Origin: an uncultured Rivularia sp.
GTDB lineage: Bacteria; Cyanobacteriota; Cyanobacteriia; Cyanobacteriales; Nostocaceae
Assembly (NCBI GenBank): GCA_963665115.1
Contig: OY762007.1
Coordinates: forward strand, 1,024,001-1,088,000
Reading direction: 5' to 3'
DNA length: 64,000 nt
The notes under the pieces are model-generated. The model did not search any database, was not told where the DNA came from, and saw only the letters and a list, made by a program, of their open reading frames with translations. The position numbers and the translations under genes are program-made. This document shows, one piece after another, positions 27,988-63,960 of this stretch. Each line of letters begins with the position of its first letter. Within the stretch, counting starts at the first letter, position 1.

Positions 27988-28054
27988 TATTGATCGTGAA
28001 GTCGCAATTTCTGTTGTTATTAGAAAGCTATTTTCAATAAATAAAGTAACTTAT

Positions 28055-29293: not shown

Positions 29294-29360
29294 CTGAATA
29301 TAGTAAAAAGCAAAATACGATCTACTTAAAGTTTAGTTTATTAAAAAAATATCATAATCT

Positions 29361-30716: not shown

Positions 30717-30799
30717 TCTAATATTGCTTTTTTAATTATTTTTGTTTTCTATGTAATTTACTGTGTTTTAAGCATTCTTAAAAGCTTTAATCTAAATAT

Positions 30800-31984: not shown

Positions 31985-32008
31985 CACAAACAAAGAGTAA
32001 TTCAAATT

Positions 32009-32668: not shown

Positions 32669-32688
32669 ACCTAATTAATTTTTCTAAA

Positions 32689-39452: not shown

Positions 39453-39561
39453 TGGTGGTTGATTGCATAAATTCTGAAGGGTTCGTTTTTCCCGTAACCT
39501 TCGGGAGACGTTATGTATAACGTCTCTACAACCCGTTAAAATTAATGAAAAGGACTACTAG
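39453..39561. mobile_element. 110-bp MITE family copy abutting the ltrA stop codon
   Basis: Nearly identical to 17655-17764. Confidence 0.85.
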
Positions 39562-45876: not shown

Positions 45877-46312
45877 TAGCTGCACGGACAATCCTTGCTC
45901 TGACTTCTAGCTTAGAGAGAGAGAATGATAAGTACTTAGACAAAATTAATTGTAGATCCACTCACTATAGGTGACTCTAAGCTTAATAAGCGTGCCATTT
46001 GTCTATAGGATTACGTTGTGTGTATCCTAACAAACATGCTAACGCTAGCCGCTAAAGAGCCGGATATAGTCACGTTATTTTTTGCATAAGTCCCGATCTA
46101 TTCAAACAAATGCTTAGATCTAAAAGTTGATAAAAGTTGATAGAAGTTGATATGTTTTTTGAATAATATTGACAATCAATCAATTTACAGCTTAAGAAAT
46201 AGTATATCCATTGAATAATAGCTACAAATAATGCAAAATTAGTTTTTATATTTACCAATATGGAGATGTCAATTTTCACTACTATTCAGAAGCATGATTA
46301 TGCAGGCACATT

Positions 46313-46417
46313 TACAGCAGATTTCATTTAAGTGAGGTACACATCGTTTCTAGAGGAAGTAGGGAGTAGGGAGTAGGGAGTAGGGAAATGTACCTCATAT
46401 ACCTGCAAAGTGCTTTA
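46313..46417. mobile_element. TA-flanked MITE containing (AGTAGGG)x4
   Basis: TACAGCA..TGCTTTA ends, internal TGAGGTACA/TGTACCTCA inverted repeat; matches 60561-60707 except for repeat number and one base. Confidence 0.85.
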
Positions 46418-46692
46418 TCAAGATTTTGCTGGTTCCCGTCAGAATATACTCTACTAAAATCAAATATGCTATATATTATATCTAAATAATTGGTAGCTCA
46501 TAAATTGACGATAGCCTATAGAGTAAATAAATTGCCTTGTTTCTTGATTTCTCTATTCATTGATTAAACTACCTACAAAGATAAAAAATATTTAAAAGCA
46601 AAAATATTAATCTTATTTCCTGATTTTTATTTTTTAATATAAGCTATTGAAATATAACATCTTGGTTTTAAATATAATAAATTAATTAACTG

Positions 46693-46731
46693 TAAAATAA
46701 ACGTGACATTCTGTTCCAGTGTGATTAAACT
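46693..46731 (+). promoter_or_regulatory. Duplicated promoter, copy A (upstream of the ABM gene)
   Basis: TAAAATAAACGTGACATTCTG identical to 47710-47730; GTGACA-17-TAAACT. Confidence 0.7.
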
Positions 46732-46964
46732 GGAGTGAAGAGAATAGTGCATAGCGTCATGATATAAAACAAATTTTATTTGAATAAGCATATCAATTTA
46801 TTGCCGTCGTTTTGTACTAATACAAACGAACAAGGGAGAACCAAGAAATAAACTGTTCTACCCTTTTATTCTCTTTAAGTGCCTTAAATGAATCGCCCTT
46901 CTTTTTTTTTTCAAACCAAAATCATACATTAGACTCAAGTAATTAGGAATTATCAGGAGTAATA

Positions 46965-47303
46965 ATGACTACTACAATCAGCGAAAAAGATAGTGTACTT
47001 ACTGTAATTAATATCTTTACAGTTAAACCAGACCAGCAGAAGCAATTAGTAGAACACCTAGTAAGTAATCTCGAAACAGCTAAGAAGCAACCAGGCTTCA
47101 TATCTGCTAATATTCATCAAAGTTTGGACGGTACGCGGGTTGTTAATTATGCTCAATGGAGTAGCCAAGAATCGTTAGAATCAGCTCTTCAAAACCAGGA
47201 ATTTATGGGTCCAGTAAAAAAGGCTGTAGAGTTTCCTCATGAGTTCCATCGATACGAAGTCGTCTCCACAATTCAAGCGGAAAAGGTAACTTCTGTGCAT
47301 TAA
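46965..47303 (+). CDS. Antibiotic biosynthesis monooxygenase (ABM) family protein
   Basis: VINIFTV, QPGFISANIHQSLDGTRVVNYAQW; AGGAG RBS. Confidence 0.92.
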   Translation: MTTTISEKDSVLTVINIFTVKPDQQKQLVEHLVSNLETAKKQPGFISANIHQSLDGTRVVNYAQWSSQESLESALQNQEFMGPVKKAVEFPHEFHRYEVVSTIQAEKVTSVH

Positions 47304-47709
47304 GATAGAACACTCACTAATTCAATTTGACAGATATAGTGGTTTGAGTTCGATACAATAACCCCCATGCTTCCGGCACTTTTTTTATTAAGTAAAGATA
47401 TAAAGTTTGCCAGAGTAAGTGTATTAAACTCAAGAAAAAAGTGCGATGTTTGTCTAAAATGAGTACGATTCACTTCCGCATGGATTTTCAACTATCCCCT
47501 ACTTGAAAGCTAGGGGCTTATTTTTATCCAAAATTCTAAACTAGTGCATTCGGTATAAAGAAGTAACTCATTCCAAATAGATAAAATGCTTGCTATATAA
47601 GCATTTTGAATGTTTAAATTTGAATGAATTTGTGTTGTACTAATGGTATGCTCTGCAAACTATGCCGGGTAAATAATAGTAACAAAAAGTTATTTTCAAG
47701 AATTAACAA

Positions 47710-47748
47710 TAAAATAAACGTGACATTCTGCTCTAATATTATTAGACT
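47710..47748 (+). promoter_or_regulatory. Duplicated promoter, copy B (upstream of the CDF gene)
   Basis: GTGACA-17-TAGACT with the same 21-bp block as copy A. Confidence 0.7.
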
Positions 47749-47940
47749 AGTGTGAAGACAATAATTAATTGTGTTAATTTTATGTAAATTAAGCTTGATT
47801 TGAATAAGTATTTTACGTAAGTTTCATCATCTAATTGACGCAGAGACTTATTCAAAGTTCTCCATCGCGTAAGCCTGCAAATTATAACTTTAAGAAAGTC
47901 TAAGTTCCCAAACTGATGACTAAATACATAACCCTTGTCT

Positions 47941-48867
47941 ATGAATACTCAGCGTCTCGAAAAGTTTGGAATTAACCTATCTATTTTTGGCTCTTTATCT
48001 ATGGCTATCTTGGGCATCTCTTATGGATTGTATATAGAGTCCGCAGCGGTGATGCTCGATGGCTTCTTTAACATCATTAGTTTTTCAATGGCATTAGCCA
48101 CCAAATGGATTTCTTGGCTTGTGCAACGTCCGGAGGGGAATACTTTCCAGTTTGGCTATAAAGGTACTGTACCCTTGCTTAACCTTTGCAAAGGGCTATT
48201 AATTGGTGGACTCTCCGTGTTTGCCTTTATTTCTGCAATTGGTGCATTATTGCATGGTGGAAGAGAGCTTAATGCAGGTTCGGCGGTAATTTATGCTGCA
48301 ATTGCAGCGTCAGTAGGTTTGTTAATCTCGGTAACGCAAACTGCGATCGCCAAAAAAACTGGCTCTCCAATAGTTCGTGTAGATGCTCAGAATTGGATGA
48401 TTAACGGGTTCATCAGTCTTTGTGTTGGGTTGGCTTTCGGTATTGTCACTCTGATTCAAAATACTCCATTATCTTGGTTTGTTCCCTATGCAGATTCTAC
48501 GCTTGTAACTGTCCTAGTAGTACTTGCTTTTCCTATGCCAGCCAAAGTTGTGATGGAAAGCATCAAGCAGCTTTTATTAGGTGCTCCTGAAGCAGATATA
48601 CAACAACGAGTTAATCGAGTCGTTGAAGATACAACGACTAAATTTCCTTGTGCTAGCCATTGTTTGAGAATGACTCAAGCCGGACAGGATATATATTTGC
48701 ATCTTCACTGGTTGTTTCCTCAAGAAGAGAAGCTAACAACTATTGAAACAGTAGATACAATGCGCGATAAAATCACCCATATTGTCATTCAGGAAATTCC
48801 CACCGCAACTCTTGATATAATTTTTACCCAGGATGAAAAATGGTTTGGAATGATTAATCCTCAATAA
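47941..48867 (+). CDS. Cation diffusion facilitator (CDF) family transporter
   Basis: SAAVMLDG, FQFGY and PYADS motifs; 6 TM segments and a cytoplasmic C-terminal domain. Confidence 0.88.
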   Translation: MNTQRLEKFGINLSIFGSLSMAILGISYGLYIESAAVMLDGFFNIISFSMALATKWISWLVQRPEGNTFQFGYKGTVPLLNLCKGLLIGGLSVFAFISAIGALLHGGRELNAGSAVIYAAIAASVGLLISVTQTAIAKKTGSPIVRVDAQNWMINGFISLCVGLAFGIVTLIQNTPLSWFVPYADSTLVTVLVVLAFPMPAKVVMESIKQLLLGAPEADIQQRVNRVVEDTTTKFPCASHCLRMTQAGQDIYLHLHWLFPQEEKLTTIETVDTMRDKITHIVIQEIPTATLDIIFTQDEKWFGMINPQ

Positions 48868-48895
48868 ATAGATGATTTAACAAAAAATTAAACAA

Positions 48896-50875
48896 ATGTT
48901 CCAATTTAGAAATTTAGCGGCTAATCAAATTTTAGCTATCTGCGTAATTCCTGTTTTATCACTTATTACTAGTATCAATCAATCTAAGGCTGAAACAGTA
49001 GATAGTTCAGTTATTAACCAATCATTAAGAACTTCGGCAGTTTCAAAAAATAATCCAAGTTCAGAACGTTTAATCAAGATTCTTAAAACTAAGACTAAAA
49101 CTAATAAAAATAATCTGACTTCTGTTACTATTTCAAATAAAAAGCAAGTTGTTACTAAAGAGAGCATCTTGTTCGACAATAAAAATAACGACCATACTTC
49201 TAAATCTAAGTCCTTAAAAAGATTTGATAATCATTTTAAGGAATCTCAAACACAATTTATAGAAGTAAATCCTCACATAAACCGACTTTTACCTCATAAA
49301 TCTACTGTAGAATCGAATGCAGACGTTATCGAATCTATCGAACTTAACAGCACTAAGAAGATTGCCAATAATCCTATGGGGCAAGTTAATAGTGTTTCTC
49401 AGTTTGCTGACGTGCAACCTAGCGACTGGGCATTTCAAGCTTTGCAATCTCTGGTAGAGCGCTATGGTTGTATTGCAGGTTATCCCAATGGTAGTTTTCG
49501 CGGCAATCGTGCGATGACTCGTTATGAATTTGCTGCGGGGTTAAATTCTTGTGTAGATAGAATAAATGAATTAATCGCAACTGCAACTTCTGAGGTAGTG
49601 AGTCAAGAAGACTTAGCGGCTTTAAATCGTTTGGAAACAGAATTTACAACCGAATTAACGAGCTTACGCGGTCGGGTGGATGCTTTAGAAGCACGTACTG
49701 CTGATTTAGAAGCAAATCAATTTTCCACTACCACTAGGCTTTTAGGGAATGTAACTCTGCAAACGAATAGTTATTTTTCAGGAGATGGCGACCCGCAAAC
49801 TACAATTCAATCTCTTGCTTTTCTTGGTTTATTAACTAGCTTTACTGGTCGAGATTTATTGCTAACGGGTATAGCTACTACAAACACAACTTTTCCCGAT
49901 TTGGCCACAACTAATAACGGCAGAGATGTTGGTTCTACAAGAGAAGGTGCGAGCGCTAATTCCAGTCCCGGCGACCAAAACAATAGTTTCCGAATTGTTG
50001 GATTAGAGTATCAATTTCCCGTCACCGATAACTTAATGGTCGATTTGATTGCTGCAAATCGCTATCGTTTTAACCCCATTCAACTGAAAAAATTTGCGCC
50101 GTATTACGTTAGGGGTGTTGGACCTGTCAGCACTTTTGCCACCGCACCTCCTATATACCTGATTGGAGGAGGTTCGGGAATATCGGCTCGTTATAAACTG
50201 TTGGACTCAACCAGCATAAATATGAGCTATATCGCATCTCCTGGCAGTATTTCAAGTTTAGGTGGATTATTTAACGGAGATTATATAGCCGCAGCAGAAA
50301 TTAACTATAATCCCAATCCTGGTTTATATTTACAATTCGCGTATCAACACGGTTACTTCGGTCCTGGTAATTTTGCTTTCAATAACGGTCAAAGTTTTAG
50401 AGATAATGGTTTTATTGGTAGTGCTTTAGCAAACCGCTTTGATAATGCTGGTGTTTTATTTGAAGACGCATCTGCTGTGAGTACTAACGCTTATTCGCTT
50501 GGTGGTTATTTCGCTATTAGCCCTGGAGTCACAATAGGCGGTTGGGCAAACCTAATAAAAGCTAGACTTCTTGGTAAAGGAGATGCCGATATTTGGTCTT
50601 ACTCGATTCAAGCTGCTTTTCCCGATTTGTTTAAAAAAGGAAATCACGGAGGCTTGATTGTAGGTATGGAACCTACTCTTACAGGTTTGAAAAGTAGTCT
50701 TGCCTCCGCAGATTTTAAGAATGATACGTCACTGCATATAGAAGCTTATTACACTCATCAGATATCGGATAAAATCTCTATAGCCCCTTCTATTACTTGG
50801 ATTACAGCACCAAACCAAGACCGAGATAATGAAGATATTGTTATTGGTGGACTAAGAACAACTTTCAGCTTTTGA
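48896..50875 (+). CDS. SLH-domain outer-membrane porin (cyanobacterial OprB/iron-uptake porin family)
   Basis: FADVQPSDWAFQALQSLVERYGC SLH domain, QFSTTT and terminal GLRTTFSF. Confidence 0.93.
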   Translation: MFQFRNLAANQILAICVIPVLSLITSINQSKAETVDSSVINQSLRTSAVSKNNPSSERLIKILKTKTKTNKNNLTSVTISNKKQVVTKESILFDNKNNDHTSKSKSLKRFDNHFKESQTQFIEVNPHINRLLPHKSTVESNADVIESIELNSTKKIANNPMGQVNSVSQFADVQPSDWAFQALQSLVERYGCIAGYPNGSFRGNRAMTRYEFAAGLNSCVDRINELIATATSEVVSQEDLAALNRLETEFTTELTSLRGRVDALEARTADLEANQFSTTTRLLGNVTLQTNSYFSGDGDPQTTIQSLAFLGLLTSFTGRDLLLTGIATTNTTFPDLATTNNGRDVGSTREGASANSSPGDQNNSFRIVGLEYQFPVTDNLMVDLIAANRYRFNPIQLKKFAPYYVRGVGPVSTFATAPPIYLIGGGSGISARYKLLDSTSINMSYIASPGSISSLGGLFNGDYIAAAEINYNPNPGLYLQFAYQHGYFGPGNFAFNNGQSFRDNGFIGSALANRFDNAGVLFEDASAVSTNAYSLGGYFAISPGVTIGGWANLIKARLLGKGDADIWSYSIQAAFPDLFKKGNHGGLIVGMEPTLTGLKSSLASADFKNDTSLHIEAYYTHQISDKISIAPSITWITAPNQDRDNEDIVIGGLRTTFSF

Positions 50876-50911
50876 CAATTGTAAATCTAAAATCTAAGAT
50901 CTAAAACTTAA

Positions 50912-51508
50912 ATGACTAATCAACCCGAAATTCTTGCTTTTGCAGGCAGCGTTCGCGAGGCATCTTTGAACAAAAAGCTTGTCCAAATTGCCGCTACAGG
51001 AGCTAAAGCCGCCGGTGCTGAGGTGACTTATATCGATCTCAAAGATTATCCGATGCCCTTATTCAATGAGGATTTGGAAGCGAAAGAGGGATTACCGCAA
51101 GCGGTTATTAAATTAAAAACATTAATGAAAGCCCATCAAGGGTTTCTTATTGCTTGTCCCGAGTACAACAGTTCTATTACTCCCTTACTCAAAAATACTA
51201 TTGATTGGGTATCGCGGCCTTCATCAGGGGAAGCACCAATGGCTTTAAGCTGCTTCCGAGGTAAGGTGGCTGCAATCATGGCAACTTCACCAGGTGGACT
51301 GGGAGGCTTGCGCGGATTAGTTCACCTGCGTTCTATCTTAGAAAGTATTGGCGTGCTTGTCATACCCGAACAAAAGGCTATAAGCAATGCATATCAAGCT
51401 CTTGATGATAACGGGCACCTGATAGATGTCAAACAAAAAGAGGCGATCGCGCTTATTGGTGCAAGGTTAACTGAAGTTACAGCGAAACTAAATGCTCTTA
51501 TTAACTAA
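50912..51508 (+). CDS. NADPH-dependent FMN reductase
   Basis: AGSVREAS.N, PEYNSSI..LLKN.IDW and SPGGLGG motifs. Confidence 0.93.
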   Translation: MTNQPEILAFAGSVREASLNKKLVQIAATGAKAAGAEVTYIDLKDYPMPLFNEDLEAKEGLPQAVIKLKTLMKAHQGFLIACPEYNSSITPLLKNTIDWVSRPSSGEAPMALSCFRGKVAAIMATSPGGLGGLRGLVHLRSILESIGVLVIPEQKAISNAYQALDDNGHLIDVKQKEAIALIGARLTEVTAKLNALIN

Positions 51509-51893
51509 TTGTTTTTACAATACTAAATAATGGCTGTAAATAGGCTAATAGCTTGCTTGATAAGTCAATAAGCGATGGAAAAGATTATTTATTATCAGCA
51601 AAAAAAGGTTTTATTGCTACCTCTATTGCACCTATGACGAATGGTAGTTATACTTAGCAAGTAATTGTAATAAGTTACATTTTATAAATATAAGTTGATG
51701 AATATAATCGCACAACTTATTTGTCAATATTTCATTTTCTTGTGACTCCTTAGTCAATTTATATATTTTTATCGTCATTCAATAGGCAATTACTATATGT
51801 GATTATTAAAAATAAAACGCTACATAGGCATCGGTTTTATTCGCTAATAAATCAATATGTACAAATGTTTGCGAATAAATGTACATAAAAAAA

Positions 51894-51922
51894 TTGCCGA
51901 ATTCTTTTTCCCAGTTTATGCT
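51894..51922 (+). promoter_or_regulatory. Candidate promoter for the CMD-EthD operon
   Basis: TTGCCG-17-TATGCT. Confidence 0.4.
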
Positions 51923-52141
51923 GGATGTTAAGTAAGTTTAGTCTTGCACTCTGAAGTAAAAATTACAATATAGAGTTAAGGTTATGTTCATTGCATTACT
52001 TACTCATATATCTGCGATGCATCAGAAGTAAGTCTTTTGCTAAATAATTAAGATTTTTCACACTTATCGGAAAATAACGCCAGCAACTGATTGCCAATTT
52101 CATTTTTTAGTAGTGAAAGCATTCGAGGAGGAATACATAAA

Positions 52142-52504
52142 ATGCAAGTGGAAAATAAGAAGTACGATAACGCGGTTTTGGATGATATCGAACTTCAAGA
52201 AGGTTTGAAACAGATAAATCCTAAATTCGGTGATTTTGTAACTCGGGTAGCTGGTGAAGCTTGGGGTTTACCTTTAATCGACCAAAAGACTAAGGCTTTG
52301 ATTACTATTGCTGTAGATATAGTTAATCAGGATCAGGTGGGACCGGGAAATCCTTTCGGCGCTCATGTAAATATGGCTCTCCAACAAGGAGCAACTCCGG
52401 CAGAAATTGAAGAATTACTATTGTTCATGTGCGTTTATGCTGGTTTCAATAAGGTTGCTGGTTGTTTTGGGATGCTAAACGAAGTTTTAGAAGCATCATC
52501 CTAA
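52142..52504 (+). CDS. Carboxymuconolactone decarboxylase (CMD) family protein
   Basis: AWG.PLIDQKTKALITIA, AHVNMAL..GAT..EIEE and VYAGF motifs; GAGGAGG RBS upstream of ATG 52142. Confidence 0.88.
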   Translation: MQVENKKYDNAVLDDIELQEGLKQINPKFGDFVTRVAGEAWGLPLIDQKTKALITIAVDIVNQDQVGPGNPFGAHVNMALQQGATPAEIEELLLFMCVYAGFNKVAGCFGMLNEVLEASS

Positions 52505-52688
52505 TCCGAATATAGCCATTACAGCAAGAGTGGAAGTATTAGGGCAACAGTAATATTTCTTAATTTAATCTTCTGTGATATCTGGCATGAAAATTTTTCT
52601 CCACCTGCGGGTTTTCTCAACAACTCCTTGATATTATTCAGGGTTAAACTTTTTTTGAATCGTAATCACATAAAAGGAGATTCTCAGA

Positions 52689-54242
52689 ATGGTTTCGACA
52701 ATAAATAAAGTAACTAGAGCCGATTATTCAGGACGCGATCGCCAAGGTAAAGTCGCTTTTTATGTACTCCTGTGGAAAAGACAAGGAATTTCCTTGGAAC
52801 TCTTCGATGAATACTGGAAGGATGTACATGGTCCAGTTTGTGCGAGATTGCCAGGGCAGCATCAATACTGGCAGTTCCATGTAGCTCACAATGAAGGTGG
52901 CTTTTTCCCAGCGATTAAGGGTTTAGACCAAACTATTCGTCAAGAAGATAATTTTGATGGTATTGCAGAATTAACCTTTGAAAACGAACAAGAGCGTCAG
53001 ACTTGGTTTGAAGCCGCCGGGATACTGATGGATGATGAGAAAAATGTATTTAGAAAAGCTATTGGTTATAATACCAATCCCAGCAATTCTATTACTTATG
53101 TAGATAGTATTCCCAATGGAGAACCTAACGGTGAAACTGGGATACTCAAATTCCATGTAATGGTTAAAAAAGCTAATGGAGTTAGTTCCGAAGCTTTTCG
53201 TCGTTACTTGACTGACGTTTTTGCAGAAAACATTAGCTCTCACGAGTCAGTACTCAAGTTTCGCCTGCATTTATTTGAAGAAGTAGATAATTCTCGTCCT
53301 GATGCTGATGGAGTCATTCATAACGAACCAGAAGAAAAGCAATATCATGCTGCTTATGAAATAGCTTTTTCAAATCAGCTTGAAAGAGAAAAGTTTTTTG
53401 CTTCCGCTCAGTATAAAGCTGCTACTCGTGATGCTGCAAAATATATTAAACAAATGCAGGCATTTCCAGAAAGAACCGCTTATACCTTTGTTTACGATGG
53501 CAAAATGACTCTTGCTGGCGAACGTAGTTCTTCAGTTGCAGAATTAATCGAAGGAATTGGAGCAGTAAACCAACTTAAGGAGGATATTAAATCTCTCATG
53601 TTAAATTCTAGTCTTTACACACAACAAAATAACGGTTTTTCTTCTTACCAGAACCAGAATCAACCACCAGCTATTAAAAAGCGCACCAATTATTACGAAG
53701 GTTTGTCCGCAGATTATTCTCGTCCGGGACTTGTAACTTCCTACGTCGCTAAAAAGTTGATTGAGGATGCAGAAAAAATTGTGGCAATGAAAGAATCCAG
53801 ATTGCCAGAAATCAACTATAACTATTCCTTAGAACAGATTGAAGCTGAAAATAAAGAATGGTGGCCTACTCACTGCGAAGCATTGAGACAGGGACGTGGA
53901 GACATCTTAACTGGTGAATATCGCGACGATTTGGTTTATTTTTGCCAGGATGGTCCTTATAGAGGCTTAGAACAACAAAAAGCAAGAGAACAGCATTGGT
54001 GGGCGTTAATTGCTCAGCCAGGAGTTACCATGTGCTGGCCAATTGTCATGTTCTGGGGCGAACACACTTACTTTGAATGGAAGTGTGAAGATAATGAAAC
54101 CAATGAAACTATTGCCAAAGGTAATGTTACCTGGGTACGTCGGGGACACCGAGGTGCTTGCTATCTAAAGACCGAACAATTGACATTTTACCGTGATGTT
54201 TTTGCTGCTGATGGATTATTAAAACTGATCGCTACTGCTTAA
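52689..54242 (+). CDS. Tandem EthD-like domains plus C-terminal SnoaL/NTF2-like domain
   Basis: LLWKRQGIS..F..YWKDVHGP, FDGIAELTF and a second KKANGVS.EAF...YHAAYEIAF repeat; AAGGAG RBS. Confidence 0.75.
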   Translation: MVSTINKVTRADYSGRDRQGKVAFYVLLWKRQGISLELFDEYWKDVHGPVCARLPGQHQYWQFHVAHNEGGFFPAIKGLDQTIRQEDNFDGIAELTFENEQERQTWFEAAGILMDDEKNVFRKAIGYNTNPSNSITYVDSIPNGEPNGETGILKFHVMVKKANGVSSEAFRRYLTDVFAENISSHESVLKFRLHLFEEVDNSRPDADGVIHNEPEEKQYHAAYEIAFSNQLEREKFFASAQYKAATRDAAKYIKQMQAFPERTAYTFVYDGKMTLAGERSSSVAELIEGIGAVNQLKEDIKSLMLNSSLYTQQNNGFSSYQNQNQPPAIKKRTNYYEGLSADYSRPGLVTSYVAKKLIEDAEKIVAMKESRLPEINYNYSLEQIEAENKEWWPTHCEALRQGRGDILTGEYRDDLVYFCQDGPYRGLEQQKAREQHWWALIAQPGVTMCWPIVMFWGEHTYFEWKCEDNETNETIAKGNVTWVRRGHRGACYLKTEQLTFYRDVFAADGLLKLIATA

Positions 54243-54243
54243 A

Positions 54244-57200
54244 ATGAAAAAAAAGGTGGCAGATAAAAATGCTGTCCTAGATGACAAAGAGCTTCAGCAG
54301 AGTTTAAAACAAATCAATCCAAAGTTTGGTGATTTTGTAACTCGGGTAGCAGGTGAAGCTTGGGGGTTGCCGTTAATTGACCAAAAAACTAAAGCTCTGA
54401 TTACCATCGCGATTGATGTTGTTAATCAGGACCATAGGGGTTCGGGCAACCCATTCACCGCTCATGTCAATATGGCTCTCAAGCAAGGTGCCAGTCGCCA
54501 AGAAATTGAAGAACTATTACTGTTTCTATGCGTTTATGCAGGCTTTAATAAAGTCGCGGCTGGCTTCGGAAGCCTCAACAAGATTTTTGATTCCGATCCC
54601 GATAACGTCAATTGCACCTCAAGGACAGTAGCAATGGTTGCAGACAGTCGAAAGATAAATAAAGCCGATTATTCAGCACGCGATTCTAAAGGGAAAGTCA
54701 GTTTTTACGTACTTCTATGGAAACGCCAAGGTATTTCCCTAGAACTATTTGATAATTATTGGAAAGATGTACATGGTCCCGTTTGTGCGAGATTACCCGG
54801 ACAGCATCAATACTGGCAGTTTCATGTAGCTCATAATGAAGGTGGATTTTGCCCTAATATTCAGGGTTTAGATTATTCCTTCGATGCGGAAGATAATTTT
54901 GATGGTATTGCAGAATTAACTTTTGAGAGCGAAGCTGAACGTCAAACCTGGTTTGAAGCAGCCGGGATATTGATGGATGACGAAAAAAATGTATTTAGAA
55001 AAGCCATTGGGTATAACACAAGTCCCGGCAATTCTATTACTTATGTAGATGGTATTCCCAACGGAGAACCGAATGGTGAAACCGGGGTGCTGAAATTCCA
55101 TGTCACGGTTAAAAAAGCCGATGGAATCAGTACCGAAGCTTTTCGTCATTATCTAACTGAGAGTTTTGCACCTCAAGTCAGCAGTCATGATTCTGTATTA
55201 AAATTTCGACTGCATTTATTTGAAGAAGTAGATAATTCTCGTCCCGATGCTGATGGAGTTATTCATTACGAAGCAGCAGAAAAGCAATATCATGCTGCTT
55301 ATGAAATAGCTTTTTCAAATCAACTTGAAAGAGAAAAGTTTTTTGCTTCTGCTCAATATCAAACTGCCATTCAAGATGCAGCTAGATATATTAAACAAAT
55401 CCAAGCATTTCCAGAAAGAACTGCTTATACCTTTGTTTACGATAGCAAAATGACTCTCTCCGGACAGCGCAGTTCAAAAGTTGCATCTCTAATCGAAAAT
55501 ATTGGAGCCAGTAATCAATTAAAGGAGAATATAATATCTTTAATGTCTAGCCAGGTTAATGGAAAGCCCAAAGGTTTGGGTCATTATCTTCAAGGAGTTC
55601 AACACTTTGGAATTACAGTTAATGACATGGCGAAAGCTATGGAATTTTATACCGAAGTTTTGGGTGGAAAACTGGCAATTGGTGGTGATGGATTCGTTGG
55701 GGAAGATTTACACAATCTACTCTTTCAAAAAGAGGATTTAGAGGCTTGGAAACAAGGTGTTAACCCCAAAGAACAAGGCATACCTAATATTCGAGATGGT
55801 TCCGAAGATGCATTAGATGTCAGATTTATTTCTTTTGGCAATACTTGTGTCGAATTAATCCATTTCCGAGATGCCCAGTTAAGTGCAAACGCACCGAACA
55901 TTTTCAGTAAAATTCCTTCTGGTATCGGGCACGTTAATGCTCCACACATTTCCTTTTATGTAAAAGACGATGTGGATATTAATCTCTTCGCCAAAATGCT
56001 AGAAGATGAATGTCAACAGCGGGGAATTAATAACGTTGTTGTCAACCGAGTTATTCATCTTGATTCGCTAGAGCAGAGAAAAACTGCGGCTCTAAAATAT
56101 GCCAAAACGGATTTTATTGGTGATTTTGATGGATGGGCTTTATTCTACTGTAAAGGTCCGAATGGCGAGCAGTTGGAATTTAATCAGGTCACAAAAAGAG
56201 CCAAAGAAAGATTTAGTGAAGCTCAAAAAGAATACAATTTGAGCAACGATACAGATTATTGGTTCTACAATAATTCTGCACCACAGCATACCAAAGTCAA
56301 CGGTAATAACCGACTGTACGGCAGCTATAGCGCCACAATAAATGCTCCAGCCGAAAAGATTTGGCAAGTGTGGACGGAACAGGCTTACAGTGAAAATTTT
56401 CCCATCTTAGAGCGCTATCATAACGGCGTTTTGCGGGAAGTATCAATGCCTGGAATGACAATGAAGCAAAGGGTAACTATTGATAAGCAAGCAGGAACAA
56501 TGAGTATTGCTTTGGTAGATAACCCTCTGTTTACAGGTCAGTTTGTTAATCATATAGATCAAAAATCTCATCAGCCCGGTTCTTCACCAATAGTGAATTT
56601 TACTATTGATTTACAACCTACAAGTGAGAACTCGCTACAGCATCAAGATGCACAAGGGTTTATTGAAGCAGCAAAACCCGAAAGAATTCAGGAAGCTGTT
56701 TATCAACTCAAACAACTTGTTGAAAATAATACTACTCAAGAGGAAAGACCAATGACACAATCTTTAACACGTACTGGTTCTAAGTCTGAGATTGTCAGAC
56801 GGATGTTTGAAGCTGGGGAGTCAATGAATGTAGAAAATTTTGTGAAATTCTACACTGAAGATGCTCACTATCAATTTAGTAACTTCCCCGTAGCATATGG
56901 TCCTCAAGGAATTCGAGATACTTCTGTAGATTTTCTGAACACCGTAGCAAAAGTCTACCACCACATTACCAATATCTGGGAGCAGGGAGACACAGTTATT
57001 TGTGAAATGGAAGTAACTTACATCCGTCACGATGGTAAAGTTTTCCGACTTCCTTGCTGCGACACAATTGTATTTAAAGGTGATAAAGTTCAGCAATTGA
57101 AAATTTACATGGATATCAGTCCTGTATTTCAAACCGAACAAGTAGAACCAGCAGCTTCAACTTCCAGCGATCTCCTCCTACAAAGAATTGGCAAAATGTA

Positions 57201-57531
57201 TGAGGCTCTACACGCAGAAAACTGGGATCAATTCATGAGCTTCTTTACTCCCGATTTGCTTTATAAAGTTGGCGCTCACGAACCAGTAATTGGACCTCAA
57301 GCTTGTCGCGACTTTTTAATTAATATTTACAGAACTTTAAAGTTGACAACTCATAATGCTAGAGGTACCTGGGCAGTTGATAATACTGTAATTTTAGAAA
57401 TGGACGCTAACTACGTCAACAAAGTTACCAAAGAATTCTCTCAAGTTCCCTGTACCGATATCTACCGCTTTGAAGGAGATAAAATCTGTGAATGGCGGGT
57501 ATATCCAGATGCTTCTCAGCTAAAGTTCTAA
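54244..57531 (+). CDS. Multidomain fusion: CMD - EthD - EthD - VOC/glyoxalase - SRPBCC-like - SnoaL - SnoaL
   Basis: N-terminus duplicates the two upstream genes; QHFGITV..FYTEVLG, ELI, HISF, GPNGEQLEF (VOC); INAPAEKIWQV (SRPBCC); two F.T.D..Y...GPQ...F.GDK NTF2-like repeats. Confidence 0.8.
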   Translation: MKKKVADKNAVLDDKELQQSLKQINPKFGDFVTRVAGEAWGLPLIDQKTKALITIAIDVVNQDHRGSGNPFTAHVNMALKQGASRQEIEELLLFLCVYAGFNKVAAGFGSLNKIFDSDPDNVNCTSRTVAMVADSRKINKADYSARDSKGKVSFYVLLWKRQGISLELFDNYWKDVHGPVCARLPGQHQYWQFHVAHNEGGFCPNIQGLDYSFDAEDNFDGIAELTFESEAERQTWFEAAGILMDDEKNVFRKAIGYNTSPGNSITYVDGIPNGEPNGETGVLKFHVTVKKADGISTEAFRHYLTESFAPQVSSHDSVLKFRLHLFEEVDNSRPDADGVIHYEAAEKQYHAAYEIAFSNQLEREKFFASAQYQTAIQDAARYIKQIQAFPERTAYTFVYDSKMTLSGQRSSKVASLIENIGASNQLKENIISLMSSQVNGKPKGLGHYLQGVQHFGITVNDMAKAMEFYTEVLGGKLAIGGDGFVGEDLHNLLFQKEDLEAWKQGVNPKEQGIPNIRDGSEDALDVRFISFGNTCVELIHFRDAQLSANAPNIFSKIPSGIGHVNAPHISFYVKDDVDINLFAKMLEDECQQRGINNVVVNRVIHLDSLEQRKTAALKYAKTDFIGDFDGWALFYCKGPNGEQLEFNQVTKRAKERFSEAQKEYNLSNDTDYWFYNNSAPQHTKVNGNNRLYGSYSATINAPAEKIWQVWTEQAYSENFPILERYHNGVLREVSMPGMTMKQRVTIDKQAGTMSIALVDNPLFTGQFVNHIDQKSHQPGSSPIVNFTIDLQPTSENSLQHQDAQGFIEAAKPERIQEAVYQLKQLVENNTTQEERPMTQSLTRTGSKSEIVRRMFEAGESMNVENFVKFYTEDAHYQFSNFPVAYGPQGIRDTSVDFLNTVAKVYHHITNIWEQGDTVICEMEVTYIRHDGKVFRLPCCDTIVFKGDKVQQLKIYMDISPVFQTEQVEPAASTSSDLLLQRIGKMYEALHAENWDQFMSFFTPDLLYKVGAHEPVIGPQACRDFLINIYRTLKLTTHNARGTWAVDNTVILEMDANYVNKVTKEFSQVPCTDIYRFEGDKICEWRVYPDASQLKF

Positions 57532-57629
57532 GCTTAAAATATGTGGTTGAAATTGATATAGCGAATCATCAATTACACCAATAAACTATAAGCAGATGGG
57601 GTAGAAGTGAGTTGTAAATAAATCATTGA

Positions 57630-57836
57630 TTGATTTTAAAAATTGAAATTATTTACGACTGCTTCTGCTTTCATCAAGTACAAAACAAAGTTAATTATAT
57701 GCGGTGGAAAACTCGGCAGGATTACGAAACTGCAAAAAGTTCTTTAGGTTCAAAACTTTTCCCCCTGATGTTCATATCTATGGGATTGTTGAGCAAACTA
57801 TCTCAGAAAGCTGAAGCTAGTAGTCCGCCACATTAA
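57630..57836 (+). pseudogene. Degenerate ABM-like gene remnant
   Basis: FHQVQNKVNYMRWKTRQDY resembles IHQSLDGTRVVNYAQWSSQES of 46965; no ATG start and no N-terminal half. Confidence 0.4.
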
Positions 57837-57970
57837 TTATGAGGGGTAATCAAAGTTTTTAGTAAGGACTTTAGTCCTCGCTACGAACCCGGAGAGAAGT
57901 ACTAGGTTTTCTGATAGAGCTTTCAAATTGTAATAGTTCAAATTTATTCAAACAATAAGGAATCAAAAAA

Positions 57971-58606
57971 ATGACAACTGAAAAAAAAGGCAAGATTGGC
58001 GTATTAGTTGAAGAGCATTTCGATCCAACAGAATTTATTCGCTTTAATGAATACTTTCCTACACAAGGTTATGAAGTCGAATACATCTCTCACTTATGGG
58101 GTAATAAAGAATTACGCTTTGGTTCTAATCCTGAAAATGACAAAGTAGAATATCATGTTACAGTTTCTACAGAAGTAAATGATATTAACCCGGAAGATTA
58201 TAAAGGAATAATTTGCATCGGAGCTTATGCCACCGACCGTTTAAGATATCAGCCAACTGTTAAAAAAGGTCAGAAAAATCAAGCTCCTGCTGTAGAATTT
58301 TTACGTAAAGTGAATGCAACAGAAAATGTTAAAGTAGGGACTATTTGTCATAGTCTATGGCTCTTATGCGCCGATACAGATTTAATCAAAGGTAAGAAAG
58401 TTACCTGCGCTCATAACATTATTTGCGATGTGGAAAATGCTGGAGCAGATGTAGTTTATGAGGGAGATGGAACAGCCGAATTAGTTATAGATGGTAACTT
58501 AATTACCGGCAAACATCCCGGCATGGTTGACGAATTTATGAAAGTTTTTGTTGAAGAAATTGAAAAAAGTAGTAGCCGAAAAACCGCAACCGCAGCAGCA
58601 GTTTGA
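57971..58606 (+). CDS. DJ-1/PfpI family protein
   Basis: VLVEEHFDPTE, IGAYA, TICHSLWL (Cys-His) and VIDGNLITG motifs; AAGGA RBS. Confidence 0.9.
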   Translation: MTTEKKGKIGVLVEEHFDPTEFIRFNEYFPTQGYEVEYISHLWGNKELRFGSNPENDKVEYHVTVSTEVNDINPEDYKGIICIGAYATDRLRYQPTVKKGQKNQAPAVEFLRKVNATENVKVGTICHSLWLLCADTDLIKGKKVTCAHNIICDVENAGADVVYEGDGTAELVIDGNLITGKHPGMVDEFMKVFVEEIEKSSSRKTATAAAV

Positions 58607-58642
58607 GCTAATTAATTATTCATAGAAATAAAAGGACATATC

Positions 58643-60463
58643 ATGACAGATAAAGTTAATTTTTCCTTTTCGGATTTAATTGCTGGTTACGTTACCCAGT
58701 ACGATCGAGATACCGATATTTTTGAACTAAAAACCTCCGACGGTAGAGAGTTCAAAGCAAAATTGAGTCCAATGGCATATGCCAAAGTGATTCAGAATTT
58801 TGATGAAGGCTATCCCGATGCTACCGGAAATATGAGAGCGATGCTCGTTCCCGGACGCTATTTATTTACCTATGGGTCATTTTATCCAGATAGCGATATC
58901 TTTGATGCCAAGCAGATTGTTTTTGCTGGTGCTAAGAAAGATGATTACGTTTTCGAGAAACAAAATTGGTGGGTTAATCAGATAGATGCTTTAGGTAAGT
59001 TCTATCTTAAAGCTCAGTTTGGTGAAGGAGAGTATGATTATCGCAATTATCGTACCAGTTTAAGTTTGAGCGGTCAGCAATCAACTACTAATTTCCGTCA
59101 AGAAACTGATACTATATCTCGTCTTGTCTACGGTTTTGCTACTGCCTTCATGATGACAGGCAACGATAGCTTCCTCAAAGCTGCTGAAAGAGGAACCGAA
59201 TATTTACGCGAACATATGCGGTTTGTGGATTTAGACGAAGGTATCGTTTATTGGTATCACGGTATTGACGTACAGGGAGAAAAAGAACAAAAAATCTTTG
59301 CTTCTGAATTTGGCGATGACTACGATGCAATCCCAGCTTACGAACAGATTTATGCTCTTGCAGGTCCCATTCAGACTTACCGCTGTACCGGGGACCCCAG
59401 AATCATGGACGATACAGAGAAAACCATTAAGCTGTTTAACGAGTTTTTCCTTGATAAGGGAGAACACGGCGGCTATTTCTCCCATATCGACCCCGTAATG
59501 CTCGATCCCTTGAGCGACACTTTGGGACGTAATAAGGGAACAAAAAACTGGAACTCAGTTGGCGACCACGCTCCAGCTTACTTAATAAACCTATGGTTGG
59601 CTACAGGTAAGCAAGAATACGCTGATATGTTGGAGTATACCTTCGACACTATCGAACAGCGTTTCCCCGACTACGAAAATAGTCCCTTCGTTCAAGAAAG
59701 ATTTTATCAAGACTGGTCTGCTGATACTACTTGGGGATGGCAGCAAAATCGGGCTGTAGTCGGTCACAACCTGAAGATTGCTTGGAACTTGATGCGGATG
59801 CAGAGCCTCAAACCCAAGGATAGTTACGTTAAATTGGCAAGAAAAATTGCCGATATAATGCCAGACGTTGGCAGCGACCAACAGCGTGGAGGTTGGTACG
59901 ATGTGGTTGAACGTGTCCTTGCTGAAGGTGAAGAATCATACCGCTTTGTTTGGCACGATCGCAAAGCTTGGTGGCAGCAAGAACAGTCAATTTTGGCGTA
60001 TTTGATTCTAGCGGGTATTGAAAAAGAGGACGATTACAAGCGTTTAAGTCGCGAAGCTTCTGCATTTTATAATGCTTGGTTCCTCGATTTAGAAGAAGGT
60101 GGAGTTTACTTTAACGTTCTTGCTAATGGTATTCCTTACCTTGCAGGTGGTAACGAACGCGGTAAAGGTTCCCACTCCATGAGCGGTTATCACTCTTTTG
60201 AATTGTCCTACTTGGCTGCGGTTTATACCAACTTGCTAATTACCAGACAGCCAATGGACTTTTACTTTAAGCCTATTCCTGGTGGTTTCCCCGATAATAT
60301 TCTCCGCGTTTCTCCAGATATTCTTCCTCCTGGAAGTATTAAGATTGCTAAGTGTGAAATTGACGGAGAACCTTACAGTAACTTTGATGCTGAGGCATTA
60401 ACAGTTACCTTACCGAAAACTGACGAGCGGGTGAAAGTCAAAGTGCAAATTGTGCCCGTTTAG
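58643..60463 (+). CDS. AGE family (N-acylglucosamine 2-epimerase-like) epimerase/isomerase with N- and C-terminal extensions
   Basis: SRLVYGFA, GHNLKIAW, WWQQEQ and GYHSFE motifs of the (alpha/alpha)6 barrel. Confidence 0.85.
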   Translation: MTDKVNFSFSDLIAGYVTQYDRDTDIFELKTSDGREFKAKLSPMAYAKVIQNFDEGYPDATGNMRAMLVPGRYLFTYGSFYPDSDIFDAKQIVFAGAKKDDYVFEKQNWWVNQIDALGKFYLKAQFGEGEYDYRNYRTSLSLSGQQSTTNFRQETDTISRLVYGFATAFMMTGNDSFLKAAERGTEYLREHMRFVDLDEGIVYWYHGIDVQGEKEQKIFASEFGDDYDAIPAYEQIYALAGPIQTYRCTGDPRIMDDTEKTIKLFNEFFLDKGEHGGYFSHIDPVMLDPLSDTLGRNKGTKNWNSVGDHAPAYLINLWLATGKQEYADMLEYTFDTIEQRFPDYENSPFVQERFYQDWSADTTWGWQQNRAVVGHNLKIAWNLMRMQSLKPKDSYVKLARKIADIMPDVGSDQQRGGWYDVVERVLAEGEESYRFVWHDRKAWWQQEQSILAYLILAGIEKEDDYKRLSREASAFYNAWFLDLEEGGVYFNVLANGIPYLAGGNERGKGSHSMSGYHSFELSYLAAVYTNLLITRQPMDFYFKPIPGGFPDNILRVSPDILPPGSIKIAKCEIDGEPYSNFDAEALTVTLPKTDERVKVKVQIVPV

Positions 60464-60466
60464 TTT

Positions 60467-60728
60467 TTAGTACTCCACAAACCCAAAATTAGCAGGTGAA
60501 GACAGAGAGGGGAAGAGTGGGTAGAAAAAATTTCTCATTATTAACTAACATAACCCTACGTACAGCAGATTTCATTTAAGTGAGGTACACATCGTTTCTA
60601 GAGGAAGTAGGGAGTAGGGAGTAGGGAGTAGGGAGTAGGGAGTAGGGAGTAGGGAGTAGGGAGTAGGGAGTAGGGAAATGTACCTCATATACCTGCAAAG
60701 TGCTGTAATTCCCTTGGCTCCGTACTAG
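60467..60728. mobile_element. MITE (homolog of 17314-17424) interrupted by a nested element
   Basis: TAGTACTCCAC...CCGTACTAG ends; core GGTGAAGACAG.GAGGGG. Confidence 0.65.
60561..60707. mobile_element. TA-flanked MITE containing (AGTAGGG)x10
   Basis: TACAGCA/TGCTGTA TIRs; heptamer array at 60606-60675. Confidence 0.88.
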
Positions 60729-60795
60729 TGTAGAGACGTTGCAGTGCAACGTCTCCCTATAATTTGAAGTTTAAAAATTTAATCGGAATTACAAC

Positions 60796-61128
60796 ATGGA
60801 AATTAATATTAAAACAGTTGATGATGTCAAGATAGCAGTACTTCAAGGTGATATAGATGCCAGTACTGCACCTTCAGTAACTCAAGAGGTTTTACCTTTA
60901 GTTGAACCAGGGAAAAGAATCATTCTTGATATGACTGAAGTTCCTTTTATGTCTAGTGCTGGCTTACGGGTGCTACTATCTCTTTACCGACAAACAAGCG
61001 TTAAGGAAGCAAAACTATTATTAGTTGGTTTGAATGAAGAACTTCAAGACACCATGTCCGTAACTGGATTTCTAGAACATTTTCAAGTTAGCGATACTCT
61101 CGACGAAGCATTAGCTGCAAAAGTTTAG
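60796..61128 (+). CDS. STAS domain anti-sigma factor antagonist
   Basis: GDIDASTAP and FMSSAGLRVL phosphoserine motif. Confidence 0.93.
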   Translation: MEINIKTVDDVKIAVLQGDIDASTAPSVTQEVLPLVEPGKRIILDMTEVPFMSSAGLRVLLSLYRQTSVKEAKLLLVGLNEELQDTMSVTGFLEHFQVSDTLDEALAAKV

Positions 61129-61148
61129 ATAAATTCTGGATTTTGAAT

Positions 61149-61254
61149 TAGTAGTTGATTGCATAAATTCTGAAGGGTTCGTTTTTCCCGCAACCGTCGG
61201 GAGACGTTATGTATAACGTCTCTACAACCCTTCAGAACAATTGATTTGGACTAT
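61149..61254. mobile_element. 110-bp MITE family copy
   Basis: TAGTAGTTGATTGCATAAATTCTGAAGGG...GAGACGTTATGTATAACGTCTC. Confidence 0.8.
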
Positions 61255-61384
61255 CAATACTACACCACATTAATTTTGATAGTTTGAAGAGACATAAAAT
61301 TCTACGTCTCCAACCGTTATACAAACAACGAACCAATTGCAATCTAAAATCTAAAATAATTTGCCATATTTAGGATTAATAATA

Positions 61385-63503
61385 ATGGAACGTATTGATG
61401 TTCATCCAACGCATACTTATGAAGGTTATAAATTACGTTGCGGAAAAGCATTTCCTTTTGGCGCTGATTTAGTACCTGGAGGAGTTAACTTCTCAATTTT
61501 CTCTAGCTATGCAACTTCTTGTACTTTAGTTCTGTTTGAGAAACATGGCTTAGAACCACTAATCGAAATTCCTTTTCCGGAAGAATTTCGCATTGGTAAT
61601 GTCTACTGTATGACTGTATTTGACCTAAATTACGAAAATCTAGAATACGGCTATCGGATGGATGGGCCAAACAATTTTCAGGAAGGTCATTGGTTCGATA
61701 CAAGTAAAATTGTCATGGACCCCCTACGCTAAGGTTATTGGTGGTAGAGATGTTTGGGGAGTCACTCCAGATTGGAATGATATTTATCATCATCGCGGAA
61801 GGATTATTTTCGATGATTTTGACTGGGAAGGCGATCGCCCTTTGGAGATTCCCCCAGAGGACCAAATTATCTATGAAATGCACGTTCGCAGCTTTACCCA
61901 GGATGCTTCTTCTGGAATTAAAGAAAAGCATCAGGGAACGTTTGCAGGTCTTCGGGACAAAATTCCTTACCTCAAAGAGTTGGGTGTCAATGCTGTTGAA
62001 TTGATGCCGATTTATGAATTTGATGAGTTTGAAAATAGCCGTCCCAATCCTGAAACTGGGGAGACGCTTTTCAACTATTGGGGTTATAGTACCGTTGGCT
62101 TCTTTGCTCCCAAAGCTGGTTATGCTGCTACAGGTAAGTTTGGGATGCAGGTTGATGAGTTAAAAACTCTGATCAAGGAATTACACAAAAACGGCATTGA
62201 AGTAATTCTGGATGTAGTTTTCAATCATACAGCAGAAGGTAACGAGCGCGGTCCGACTATTTCTTTCCGGGGAATTGATAATAAGACCTACTATATGCTG
62301 ACTCCAGAGGGTTATTACTATAACTTTAGCGGAACTGGCAATACTCTCAACTGCAACAATCCAGTTGTGCGGGGAATAGTACTTGACTGTCTGCGCTACT
62401 GGGCTTCTGAATACCATATTGATGGGTTTAGATTTGACTTAGCGGCGATTTTAGGACGCGACCCTTCGGGCGCACCTTTAGCAAATCCACCTTTACTTGA
62501 ATCTTTAGCTTTTGACCCGATTCTGGCTAAATGTAAACTGATTGCTGAAGCTTGGGATGCAGGCGGTTTATATCAAGTTGGTTCTTTCCCGGCTTACGGA
62601 CGTTGGGCAGAGTGGAATGGTAAATACCGCGACGATATCCGTAAATTCCTCAAGGGCGATGGTAGCACTGGGAATCTAGCACAATGTCTACAAGGTTCTC
62701 CGGATCTTTATGCATGGTCTGGTAGAGCGCCAGCCACATCAATTAATTTTATTACCGCTCACGACGGTTTTACCTTGATGGATATGGTTTCCTACGATGG
62801 AAAACATAACGATGCCAATGGGGAAAACAACAACGATGGTACTAATGATAATGATAGTTGGAACTGCGGTTGGGAAGGACCAACAGATGACCTTGGTATA
62901 AATACCTTGCGCCGTCGGCAGATAAAAAACGCCTTGGCGATATTGATGGTCAGCCAAGGTGTACCGATGATTCTCATGGGTGATGAGATGGGTCGGACTA
63001 AGCATGGTAATAATAATACCTATTGCCACGACAACCAACTAAATTGGTTAGATTGGAATCTGTTAGAAAAAAATGCAGATTTATTTAACTTCTCCAAAAA
63101 CTGCATTAATTTCCGCAAAGCCCATCCAGTACTGAGAAACCAATGGCACTTCCAAAACCGCGACTATATGGGTAGTGGTTACGCAGATATTACATGGCAT
63201 GGTACTCAAGCTTGGAATGCAGATTGGAATTCTAATCATACTTTAGCGTTTATGCTGTGTGGAAAACACGCAAAGCAAGGAAATGCAGAAGATAGCTATA
63301 TTTACGTAGCAATGAATATGCACTGGGAATCTCATTGGTTTGAACTTCCCCAATTACACCCAGGCATGAATTGGCGAGTCTTTGCTAATACTGGAGTAGT
63401 TCCACCTCAAGATAGCTGGGAACCAGGAACAGAACCAGTATTGGAAAATCAATCGGGATTGTTAATGGGCGATCGCTCTGTAGCAATCTTAGTTGGTAAA
63501 TAA
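61385..63503 (+). CDS. glgX: Glycogen debranching enzyme/isoamylase (CBM48 + GH13); split by a +1 frameshift at CCCCC 61720-61724
   Basis: PFGA..GVNFS, DPYAK restored by removing one C, IYEMHVR, NYWGY, DVVFNHTAEG, DGFRFDL, AEAWD and AHDGFTL. Confidence 0.93.
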
Positions 63504-63621
63504 AAGCAGTGAGCAATAAACAGTGAACAGTTAGATTTATTAACTAATAACTGATAGCTCTACGAACTTTCGCTTTCAAATTTTAATTACTTACAATCTA
63601 CACAATAACTAACAGGAAATT

Positions 63622-63960
63622 ATGGCTTTCGACGCATCTTTAGAAGTAATCAATAACGTAGCTAAAATTACCGTCAACGGAGAACTGGATGCAAGTACCG
63701 CACCACAGTTAAAAACAAAATTAGAAGAAGCTGCTGCCGAAGAACCCAAGCGCTTGGTTTTAATGATGGAAGGTTTAGAATACATGGCTAGTGCTGGCTT
63801 GCGGATGCTGATATTCGCTAAGCAAAAAATGGGTAATGCTGTTGATATTTATATGGTAGGTACTCAGGAAATGGTACTGGATACTATTACCAAAACCGGC
63901 TTTGATAAAAGCGTATTTTTGGTAGATAAGTACGATGAAGCGCAGTTAGAAGCTGTGTAG
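63622..63960 (+). CDS. STAS domain anti-sigma factor antagonist
   Basis: GELDASTAP and YMASAGLRML motifs. Confidence 0.93.
   Translation: MAFDASLEVINNVAKITVNGELDASTAPQLKTKLEEAAAEEPKRLVLMMEGLEYMASAGLRMLIFAKQKMGNAVDIYMVGTQEMVLDTITKTGFDKSVFLVDKYDEAQLEAV

Follow-up and report, generated by a model that had tools for sequence, protein, structure and literature searches.

An enlarged icfG-type operon in an uncultured Rivularia interleaves STAS switch proteins with GlgX2-type and AGE-like enzymes

A row of co-oriented genes (46965..63960) was analyzed in a 64,000-nucleotide stretch of DNA (the window; contig OY762007.1, positions 1,024,001 to 1,088,000, assembly GCA_963665115.1) from an uncultured Rivularia sp. 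By sequence, it is near certain that the right half of this row belongs to the family of the icfG operon of Synechocystis PCC 6803 (slr1852-slr1862), so the operon is already known and the row is an enlarged variant whose enzymes are uncharacterized. Our preferred explanation, held tentatively and at slightly less than an even chance, is that this Nostocales-expanded icfG operon contains a GlgX2-type glucan enzyme and an AGE-like enzyme that would form a pair gated by the second of two STAS proteins (STAS 2), with small folds processing keto or dicarbonyl products. The locus and its relatives display orthology, conserved gene order, intact catalytic motifs, purifying selection and fusions of STAS domains to enzymes. 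The initial annotation had described twelve same-strand genes and an ABM remnant, a layout borne out by the window's open reading frame (ORF) list, which places all 12 ORFs on the plus strand at the coordinates given below, by Pfam and by an intact ABM gene in a related locus (L003). The nearest named proteins come from Rivularia-like Nostocales.

The core begins with a DJ-1/PfpI protein (57971..58606, +; Pfam DJ-1_PfpI; Slr1854 orthologue) and an AGE-superfamily barrel enzyme (58643..60463, +; Pfam GlcNAc_2-epim; Slr1855 equivalent), followed by STAS 1 (60796..61128, +; Pfam STAS; Slr1856 equivalent), a GlgX2-type GH13 enzyme (61385..63503, +; Pfam CBM48/GH13; Slr1857 orthologue) and STAS 2 (63622..63960, +; Pfam STAS; Slr1859 equivalent). 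Upstream lie a CMD-family protein (52142..52504, +; ATG start after GAGGA; Slr1853 orthologue) and a 517-aa protein with tandem EthD domains and a C-terminal SnoaL-like domain (52689..54242, +; Pfam EthD x2; Slr1852 equivalent). Domain calls were taken from a Pfam scan of the row proteins, plus NCBIfam and Atlas matches where named. It had been suspected that the row runs past the window, where an anti-sigma kinase and a SpoIIE phosphatase were to be looked for, and both were found just beyond its end in the adjoining sequence (L001; window position = L001 position + 60000): an RsbW-type kinase of 143 aa (L001 4181-4612; HATPase_c_2, E=9e-20; Slr1861 equivalent) and a GAF-PP2C phosphatase of 485 aa (L001 4902-6359; SpoIIE, E=2e-43, plus GAF; IcfG equivalent). 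Opposite-strand genes after the phosphatase mark the downstream end of the row.

The published operon, slr1852-1862, contains an N-acetylglucosamine 2-epimerase-like gene, an anti-sigma antagonist, glgX and icfG (bioRxiv 2021.07.28.454097), and the 6803 set comprises the kinase Slr1861, the STAS proteins Slr1856 and Slr1859, the phosphatase IcfG and the isoamylase Slr1857 (PMC12329169, citing Beuf 1994, Shi 1999 and Gonzalez 2001 as icfG operon literature). A Synechocystis salina locus (L031), used as a proxy for the 6803 proteins other than Slr1853, Slr1854 and GlgX, holds the operon genes in the published 6803 order. Its CMD, DJ-1 and GlgX proteins fall in 90% clusters with the 6803 proteins named slr1853, slr1854 and GlgX. 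PMC12329169 gives position numbers for 17 Slr1861 residues, of which the L031 kinase has 16. Six loci drawn by slr1857 primers, none of them labelled cyanobacterial, were left aside. The row proteins are 69-70% identical to Slr1853, 81% to Slr1854 and 74-76% to the 6803 GlgX (BAA17652, identified with Slr1857 by its consecutive accession number, as we infer); identities to S. salina are 78% for the AGE-like protein, 55% for STAS 1, 37% for the kinase, 48% for the phosphatase domain and 76% between the C-terminal part of the 517-aa protein and the first gene of the S. salina operon. All of the Slr1852-like domain, CMD, DJ-1, AGE-like, STAS, glgX, STAS, kinase and PP2C components are thus shared, and the core order is kept, with the AGE-like gene followed by two STAS genes that flank glgX and with an RsbW-type kinase plus a PP2C phosphatase. 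The row differs in that the Slr1852 part is fused behind tandem EthD domains, the kinase precedes the phosphatase (swapped relative to L031), the phosphatase carries a GAF sensor, and a 1095-aa seven-domain fusion, ABM, CDF, porin and FMN reductase are added, whereas the Synechocystis form has only three small enzymes. The initial view of the cluster as uncharacterized therefore stands for its enzymes but not for its core, the switch proteins of which have been studied (PMC12329169). The slr1862-position (LarA-like) protein gave no tblastn match in the Rivularia genome and, since its gene is found in only 2/80 loci (the best 80 of 597 AGE-like relatives), it is not a core feature.

Of the 600 stretches examined with the AGE-like query, these 597 were confirmed as relatives; the 80 best loci were kept, at 63-96% identity. 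Judged by their organism names, the 80 loci represent about ten phyla. Among the 56 of the 80 with at least 8 kb downstream, which are kin and not independent samples, the order AGE-STAS-glgX-STAS was seen in 54 and kinase plus phosphatase in 51. The AGE-like gene is patchily distributed (24/60 family genomes; 17/151 phylum genomes, the Rivularia genome included). Within the genus, the long form is present in G084 and G069 and partly in G075, and about a dozen other genomes carry a plainer form at ~74% DNA identity; G084 has both. The co-conservation that the initial annotation had proposed to look for was thus found within the genus as well as in the AGE-centred loci and the EthD-centred loci described below. 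A Mastigocoleus locus (L113) has the entire row, from the multicopper oxidase upstream of it through STAS 2, and in comparison with it the ratio of nonsynonymous to synonymous substitution rates (dN/dS) is 0.04-0.18 for all 12 genes and lowest for AGE and glgX (0.04-0.05); the row is under purifying selection. Chance accretion was rejected, as the whole row recurs in Mastigocoleus with dN/dS of at most 0.18.

All four GH13 motif regions of the row GlgX are intact and, like the CBM48 domain, are shared with the GlgX debranching enzymes (GH13, TIGR02100). In contrast to canonical GlgX, the row enzyme groups with Slr1857, its 74-76% identity to the 6803 GlgX comparing with 46% to the other glgX of the genome, and it reads EAWD where the latter reads EPWD. 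A possible connection to the starch-forming GlgX2 of Cyanobacterium CLg1 was not confirmed. When assayed with a coupled phosphorylase, Slr1857 was inactive in debranching, and knocking out its gene gave no phenotype (preprint, bioRxiv 2022.11.21.517384), which weakens the earlier statement that GlgX releases maltodextrins here; the naming of GlgX1 and GlgX2 differs between papers. The Slr1855-type protein is assigned to the AGE superfamily (GlcNAc 2-epimerase, cellobiose 2-epimerase and the 8h1k group), with which it shares by alignment the Arg/His/Trp active-site pattern. Its residues R160, H309, H375, W443 and H517 are present in 63/63 sequences and align in part with solved AGE-family enzymes (best PDB match 8h1k, E=2e-6). 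Unlike these, the row protein is 606 aa long with extra N- and C-terminal regions, lies below the NCBIfam EpiA cut-off and carries an invariant Lys378, three residues past the central His, at a position that is Glu in the solved enzymes aligned with it (8bry, 8h1k group). AGE-like genes adjoin three divergent GH13 lineages, including a glgX lineage of ~50% identity and a far more distant GH13, and this ties AGE-like enzymes to alpha-glucan chemistry. Protein clusters from several Synechocystis strains hold shortened AGE proteins (354-459 aa) or glgX pieces, which may reflect decay or assembly error.

The DJ-1 protein keeps the Cys126-His127 elbow, with E14, E21, C126 and H127 found in at least 90% of 64 sequences, and its nearest solved relatives are of the YhbO/SAV1875 type. 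DJ-1 proteins beside the same core split into a close group (52-95% identity) and a distant one (27-36%). An Atlas cluster of 51 DJ-1+AGE fusion proteins (score 0.82) serves as a lead only. No reaction was reported for Slr1852-Slr1855 in the literature searched, which lay mostly outside subscription journals and supplements.

The switch proteins resemble the SpoIIAA/SpoIIAB/SpoIIE and RsbV/RsbW/RsbU systems of Bacillus, sharing a STAS protein with a conserved Ser motif, a HATPase kinase and a PP2C phosphatase; unlike in Bacillus, two STAS genes are interleaved with sugar enzymes, the row is without a sigma factor, and STAS-enzyme fusions occur in relatives. The predicted phospho-Ser, assigned by motif analogy to Ssr1600 S59 (PMC12329169), is S54 of STAS 1 in 59/59 sequences and S57 of STAS 2 in 55/55 free copies. 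Published work on 6803 shows both STAS proteins to be substrates of the kinase and the first to be a substrate of IcfG, with higher phosphorylation of both in darkness (PMC7466104) and in early resuscitation (bioRxiv 325761). Fusions of a STAS2-type domain to the AGE-like enzyme occur in L081, in 5 of 118 longer database matches and in 9 of 20 hand-picked Nostocaceae loci; two proteins join such a domain to GlgX and two to the kinase. All AGE- and GlgX-fused STAS domains that were run against both profiles matched STAS2 with a higher score than STAS1. None of the nine Nostocaceae loci with an AGE-STAS fusion (0/9) has a kinase or PP2C match in the 20 kb of sequence retrieved. Across 15 AGE-fused STAS domains, the phospho-Ser position is occupied by Ser in 8, Thr in 4, Ala in 2 and Lys in 1. 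Because STAS2 is fused to AGE or GlgX, often with no kinase nearby, it likely gates both enzymes directly, as far as sequence comparison can indicate.

A second, kinase-less type of cluster was also observed in Nostocaceae (L091-L096, L107-L109). It usually consists of CMD, Slr1852-like, DJ-1, a small gene (DUF1830 in L092), a divergent glgX and an AGE-STAS fusion, continuing with a receiver-thioredoxin-reductase-like gene (scanned in L092 and L096) and then a cyclic nucleotide-histidine kinase (cNMP; scanned in L092).

Following our preferred explanation, the GlgX2-type glucan enzyme and the AGE-like sugar isomerase would work as a pair on alpha-glucan-derived sugar ends, with GlgX2 needing a partner or an unusual substrate and the AGE-like enzyme acting, as family knowledge suggests, through an enediol. 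STAS 2 would bind the enzymes and gate the pair directly, and DJ-1 together with the small cofactor-free folds would act downstream on keto or dicarbonyl sugars. We favor this scheme because Slr1857 alone is inactive in debranching although its catalytic motifs are intact, because the phospho-Ser is invariant in free STAS2 but Ala or Lys in 3/15 AGE-fused copies, and because the STAS proteins gain phosphorylation in darkness and at the start of resuscitation. A bolder form of it, which is possible but more doubtful, has the STAS protein as a phosphorylation-gated subunit of the GlgX2/AGE-like pair in a hitherto undescribed alpha-glucan-to-carbonyl-sugar pathway that spans about ten phyla and carries lineage-specific tailoring modules, the seven-domain fusion of this row being one; if true, such a subunit would explain the inactivity of purified GlgX2 alone. 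The switch may have two outputs, since the kinase can also act as an anti-sigma factor.

Several points weigh against this explanation. The literature searched holds no measured reaction for any enzyme of the row, operon neighbors can fuse without binding each other, most of the nine Nostocaceae fusions probably represent one inherited event, and 12/15 fused STAS domains keep Ser or Thr. The glgX2 knockout was without phenotype (bioRxiv 2022.11.21.517384), and the kinase output described in print is control of a sigma factor, with the anti-SigC role proposed by modelling and from holoenzyme levels (PMC12329169). Sequence comparison turned up no solved relatives of the accessory folds, so carbonyl processing is a role suggested only by family knowledge, and the genome has its own canonical glgX elsewhere, so that glycogen itself need not be the substrate.

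The best-surviving alternative, unlikely but to be taken seriously, is a classic partner switch acting on a sigma factor (SigC) encoded elsewhere, with the sugar and carbonyl enzymes being co-transcribed carbon-stress genes that have no physical link to it. This would agree with the findings that Slr1861, the proposed anti-SigC factor, binds and phosphorylates Ssr1600 and that icfG and slr1859 mutants have carbon-growth defects (PMC12329169), with the reported co-regulation of the operon under salt, and with a sigma-70 gene near one kinase-less locus (L092). However, it leaves unexplained why STAS genes are interleaved between enzymes in 54/56 loci across phyla and why STAS2 is fused to AGE where no kinase or phosphatase is nearby.

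The left half of the row (CMD, tandem EthD, seven-domain fusion, ABM, porin, FMN reductase and CDF) is a recurring Nostocales add-on. It comprises, besides the CMD and EthD proteins, an ABM-fold protein (46965..47303, +; Pfam ABM), a loosely attached CDF cation-efflux transporter (47935..48867, +; Pfam), an SLH + OprB/SomB-type porin (48896..50875, +; Pfam and NCBIfam por_somb), an NADPH-dependent FMN reductase (50912..51508, +; Pfam FMN_red) and the 1095-aa CMD-EthD-EthD-VOC-SRPBCC-SnoaL-SnoaL fusion (54244..57531, +; Pfam CMD+EthD+Glyoxalase+SnoaL_2 x2). The fold assignments of the initial annotation were supported by Pfam, with weaker evidence for two: Pfam gives no match for the SnoaL at the C-terminus of the 517-aa protein, which has a SnoaL-like Atlas match (0.96), and the SRPBCC part of the fusion reaches E=0.15 in the window and E=3e-10 (AtaL) in its L091 homologue. 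No solved relatives were found by sequence for the tandem EthD, the Slr1852-like domain or the SRPBCC part. The front half of the fusion duplicates the two preceding genes at 76-83% DNA identity (repeats D1-D3), and the protein is whole, split or reshuffled across many Nostocales loci (dN/dS 0.09 vs L113).

Since AGE-centred loci (10-kb flank) end short of the 5' genes, these were counted in an EthD-centred search. Of the 146 stretches it yielded, the best 80 provided 62 loci, all but one labelled cyanobacterial and 50 of them full-length. Among the 50, CMD and the Slr1852-like domain were each present in 46, DJ-1 in 42, AGE and VOC each in 39, the porin in 23, ABM in 18 (at varying positions), the multicopper oxidase in 11, LtrA in 10, FMN reductase in 7 and CDF in 4. 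The CDF gene was found in 1/60 family genomes, there on another contig than AGE, and the porin has 20 tblastn matches across the genome. An LtrA-family membrane protein (39558..40745, -; Pfam LtrA) and a multicopper oxidase + FG-GAP + DUF4114 protein (41397..45807, +; Pfam; split at 43532) are likely outer accessory genes; both recur beside or inside the cluster in relatives (e.g., LtrA between DJ-1 and AGE in L101), from which the unit may start near 39.5 kb. Other loci join the core to VOC, GMC, a thiamine diphosphate (ThDP) enzyme, OYE, SDR, tyrosinase, cupins, ALO-type oxidase, encapsulin, halogenase-like and methyltransferase genes. In L103 (14324-17078), a halogenase-like FAD enzyme and an O-methyltransferase lie between AGE and STAS 1, and in a Chloroflexi locus (L054 1188-9871) the AGE-like gene is preceded by genes for an encapsulin (Linocin_M18), an ALO-type FAD oxidase, a cupin-EthD protein and SnoaL. 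The expanded form of the operon and the STAS fusions were not described in the literature searched, again mostly outside subscription journals and supplements.

These accessory genes bear on the idea of the initial annotation that the row is a biosynthetic cluster without a core, in which glucan-derived sugar would be turned into an exported small molecule and the accessory folds would be tailoring enzymes. Its observation that no polyketide synthase or nonribosomal peptide synthetase core is visible was upheld: the scanned ORFs, which reach from 39.5 kb to the phosphatase beyond the window end, include no scaffold-building enzyme of these two kinds or of the ribosomally synthesized peptide kind. 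The accessory folds are typical of tailoring, the porin occurs in 23/50 full-length EthD loci, the spread is patchy (17/151 phylum genomes) and some loci insert the halogenase-like and O-methyltransferase pair (L103), MFS transporters, GMC, ThDP, ALO-type oxidase, tyrosinase or encapsulin genes. Nevertheless, we regard this as rather improbable, given that the accessory set varies by locus while the core is fixed, that the Synechocystis form manages with only three small enzymes and that no product was reported in the literature searched. The accessory set varies too much from genome to genome to yield a single fixed product, and a fixed core with exchangeable small-enzyme modules fits better with a shared upstream chemistry that has variable endings. 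Least probable, and in our judgment a poor fit, is a general reactive-carbonyl and oxidative detoxification island (DJ-1 glyoxalase III, VOC, reductases) flanking a glgX paralogue by chance, for although the DJ-1 Cys-His pair is kept, VOC, AKR, MDR, SDR, OYE and peroxiredoxin-like genes are neighbors and slr1853/slr1854 are up under ethanol, the most conserved genes are AGE and glgX rather than the detoxification folds, and DJ-1 splits into its close and distant groups beside the same core.

Two genes are interrupted by single extra bases, which were checked over the row in contigs of four runs (X1-X4) with the same organism label and study. The glgX gene is split by one extra C at 61720 that is present in X1 and absent from X2, X3 and X4, of which X2 and X3 have zero or one other change over 18 kb. 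The multicopper oxidase gene is split by one extra G at 43532 with the same run pattern (absent from X2-X4), and X1 carries a further inserted C at 41554 that is lacking in the window and in X2-X4, so X1 seems prone to errors at C/G runs. Sequencing artefacts most likely account for both splits, and a real recent glgX pseudogene was dropped as an explanation in view of the identical pattern at the oxidase gene and the behavior of X1; a true isolate-specific mutation may still underlie them. The ABM remnant (~57681-57811, +), a frameshifted 3' piece, is 74-86% identical to the intact ABM in the same slot of L003, and no indel was reported there across the four runs.

A promoter-like element of 111 nt is present in two copies that are 75% identical and occur in these two places only in the genome, copy 1 ahead of ABM (46684..46794, +; GTGACA-17-TAAACT at 46703-46731) and copy 2 ahead of CDF (47701-47811); a single element is conserved ahead of CDF in L111 and L114. 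Consensus promoter sites (54 vs 51.3 by chance) and terminators (17 vs 12.4) were near chance overall, and Rfam gave 0 matches in the window and L001. A small element found at 46313-46417 and 60561-60707 has imperfect inverted ends on either side of a 7-bp AGTAGGG tandem repeat; its left arm has 18 copies genome-wide, and it is absent at 46310-46414 in X4. Directly after the phosphatase (L001 6447-16636, -) are two large low-complexity, secreted-looking proteins of 1323 and 2054 aa with near-identical N-termini, putatively haemagglutinin-like by motif. Unrelated to the row is a surface-polysaccharide-like locus at 22159-33480, with glycosyltransferase-, sulfotransferase-, APS-kinase- and flippase-like ORFs by eye.

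Overall, the locus is not a new system, but its large accessory set is useful for finding the downstream chemistry of the operon. Although a link between the icfG operon and carbon regulation has been drawn since the 1990s, the literature searched assigns no reaction to its enzymes. If STAS 2 and the AGE-like protein switch on GlgX2, this would be a partner switch that gates metabolic enzymes directly and a widespread new branch of glucan metabolism.

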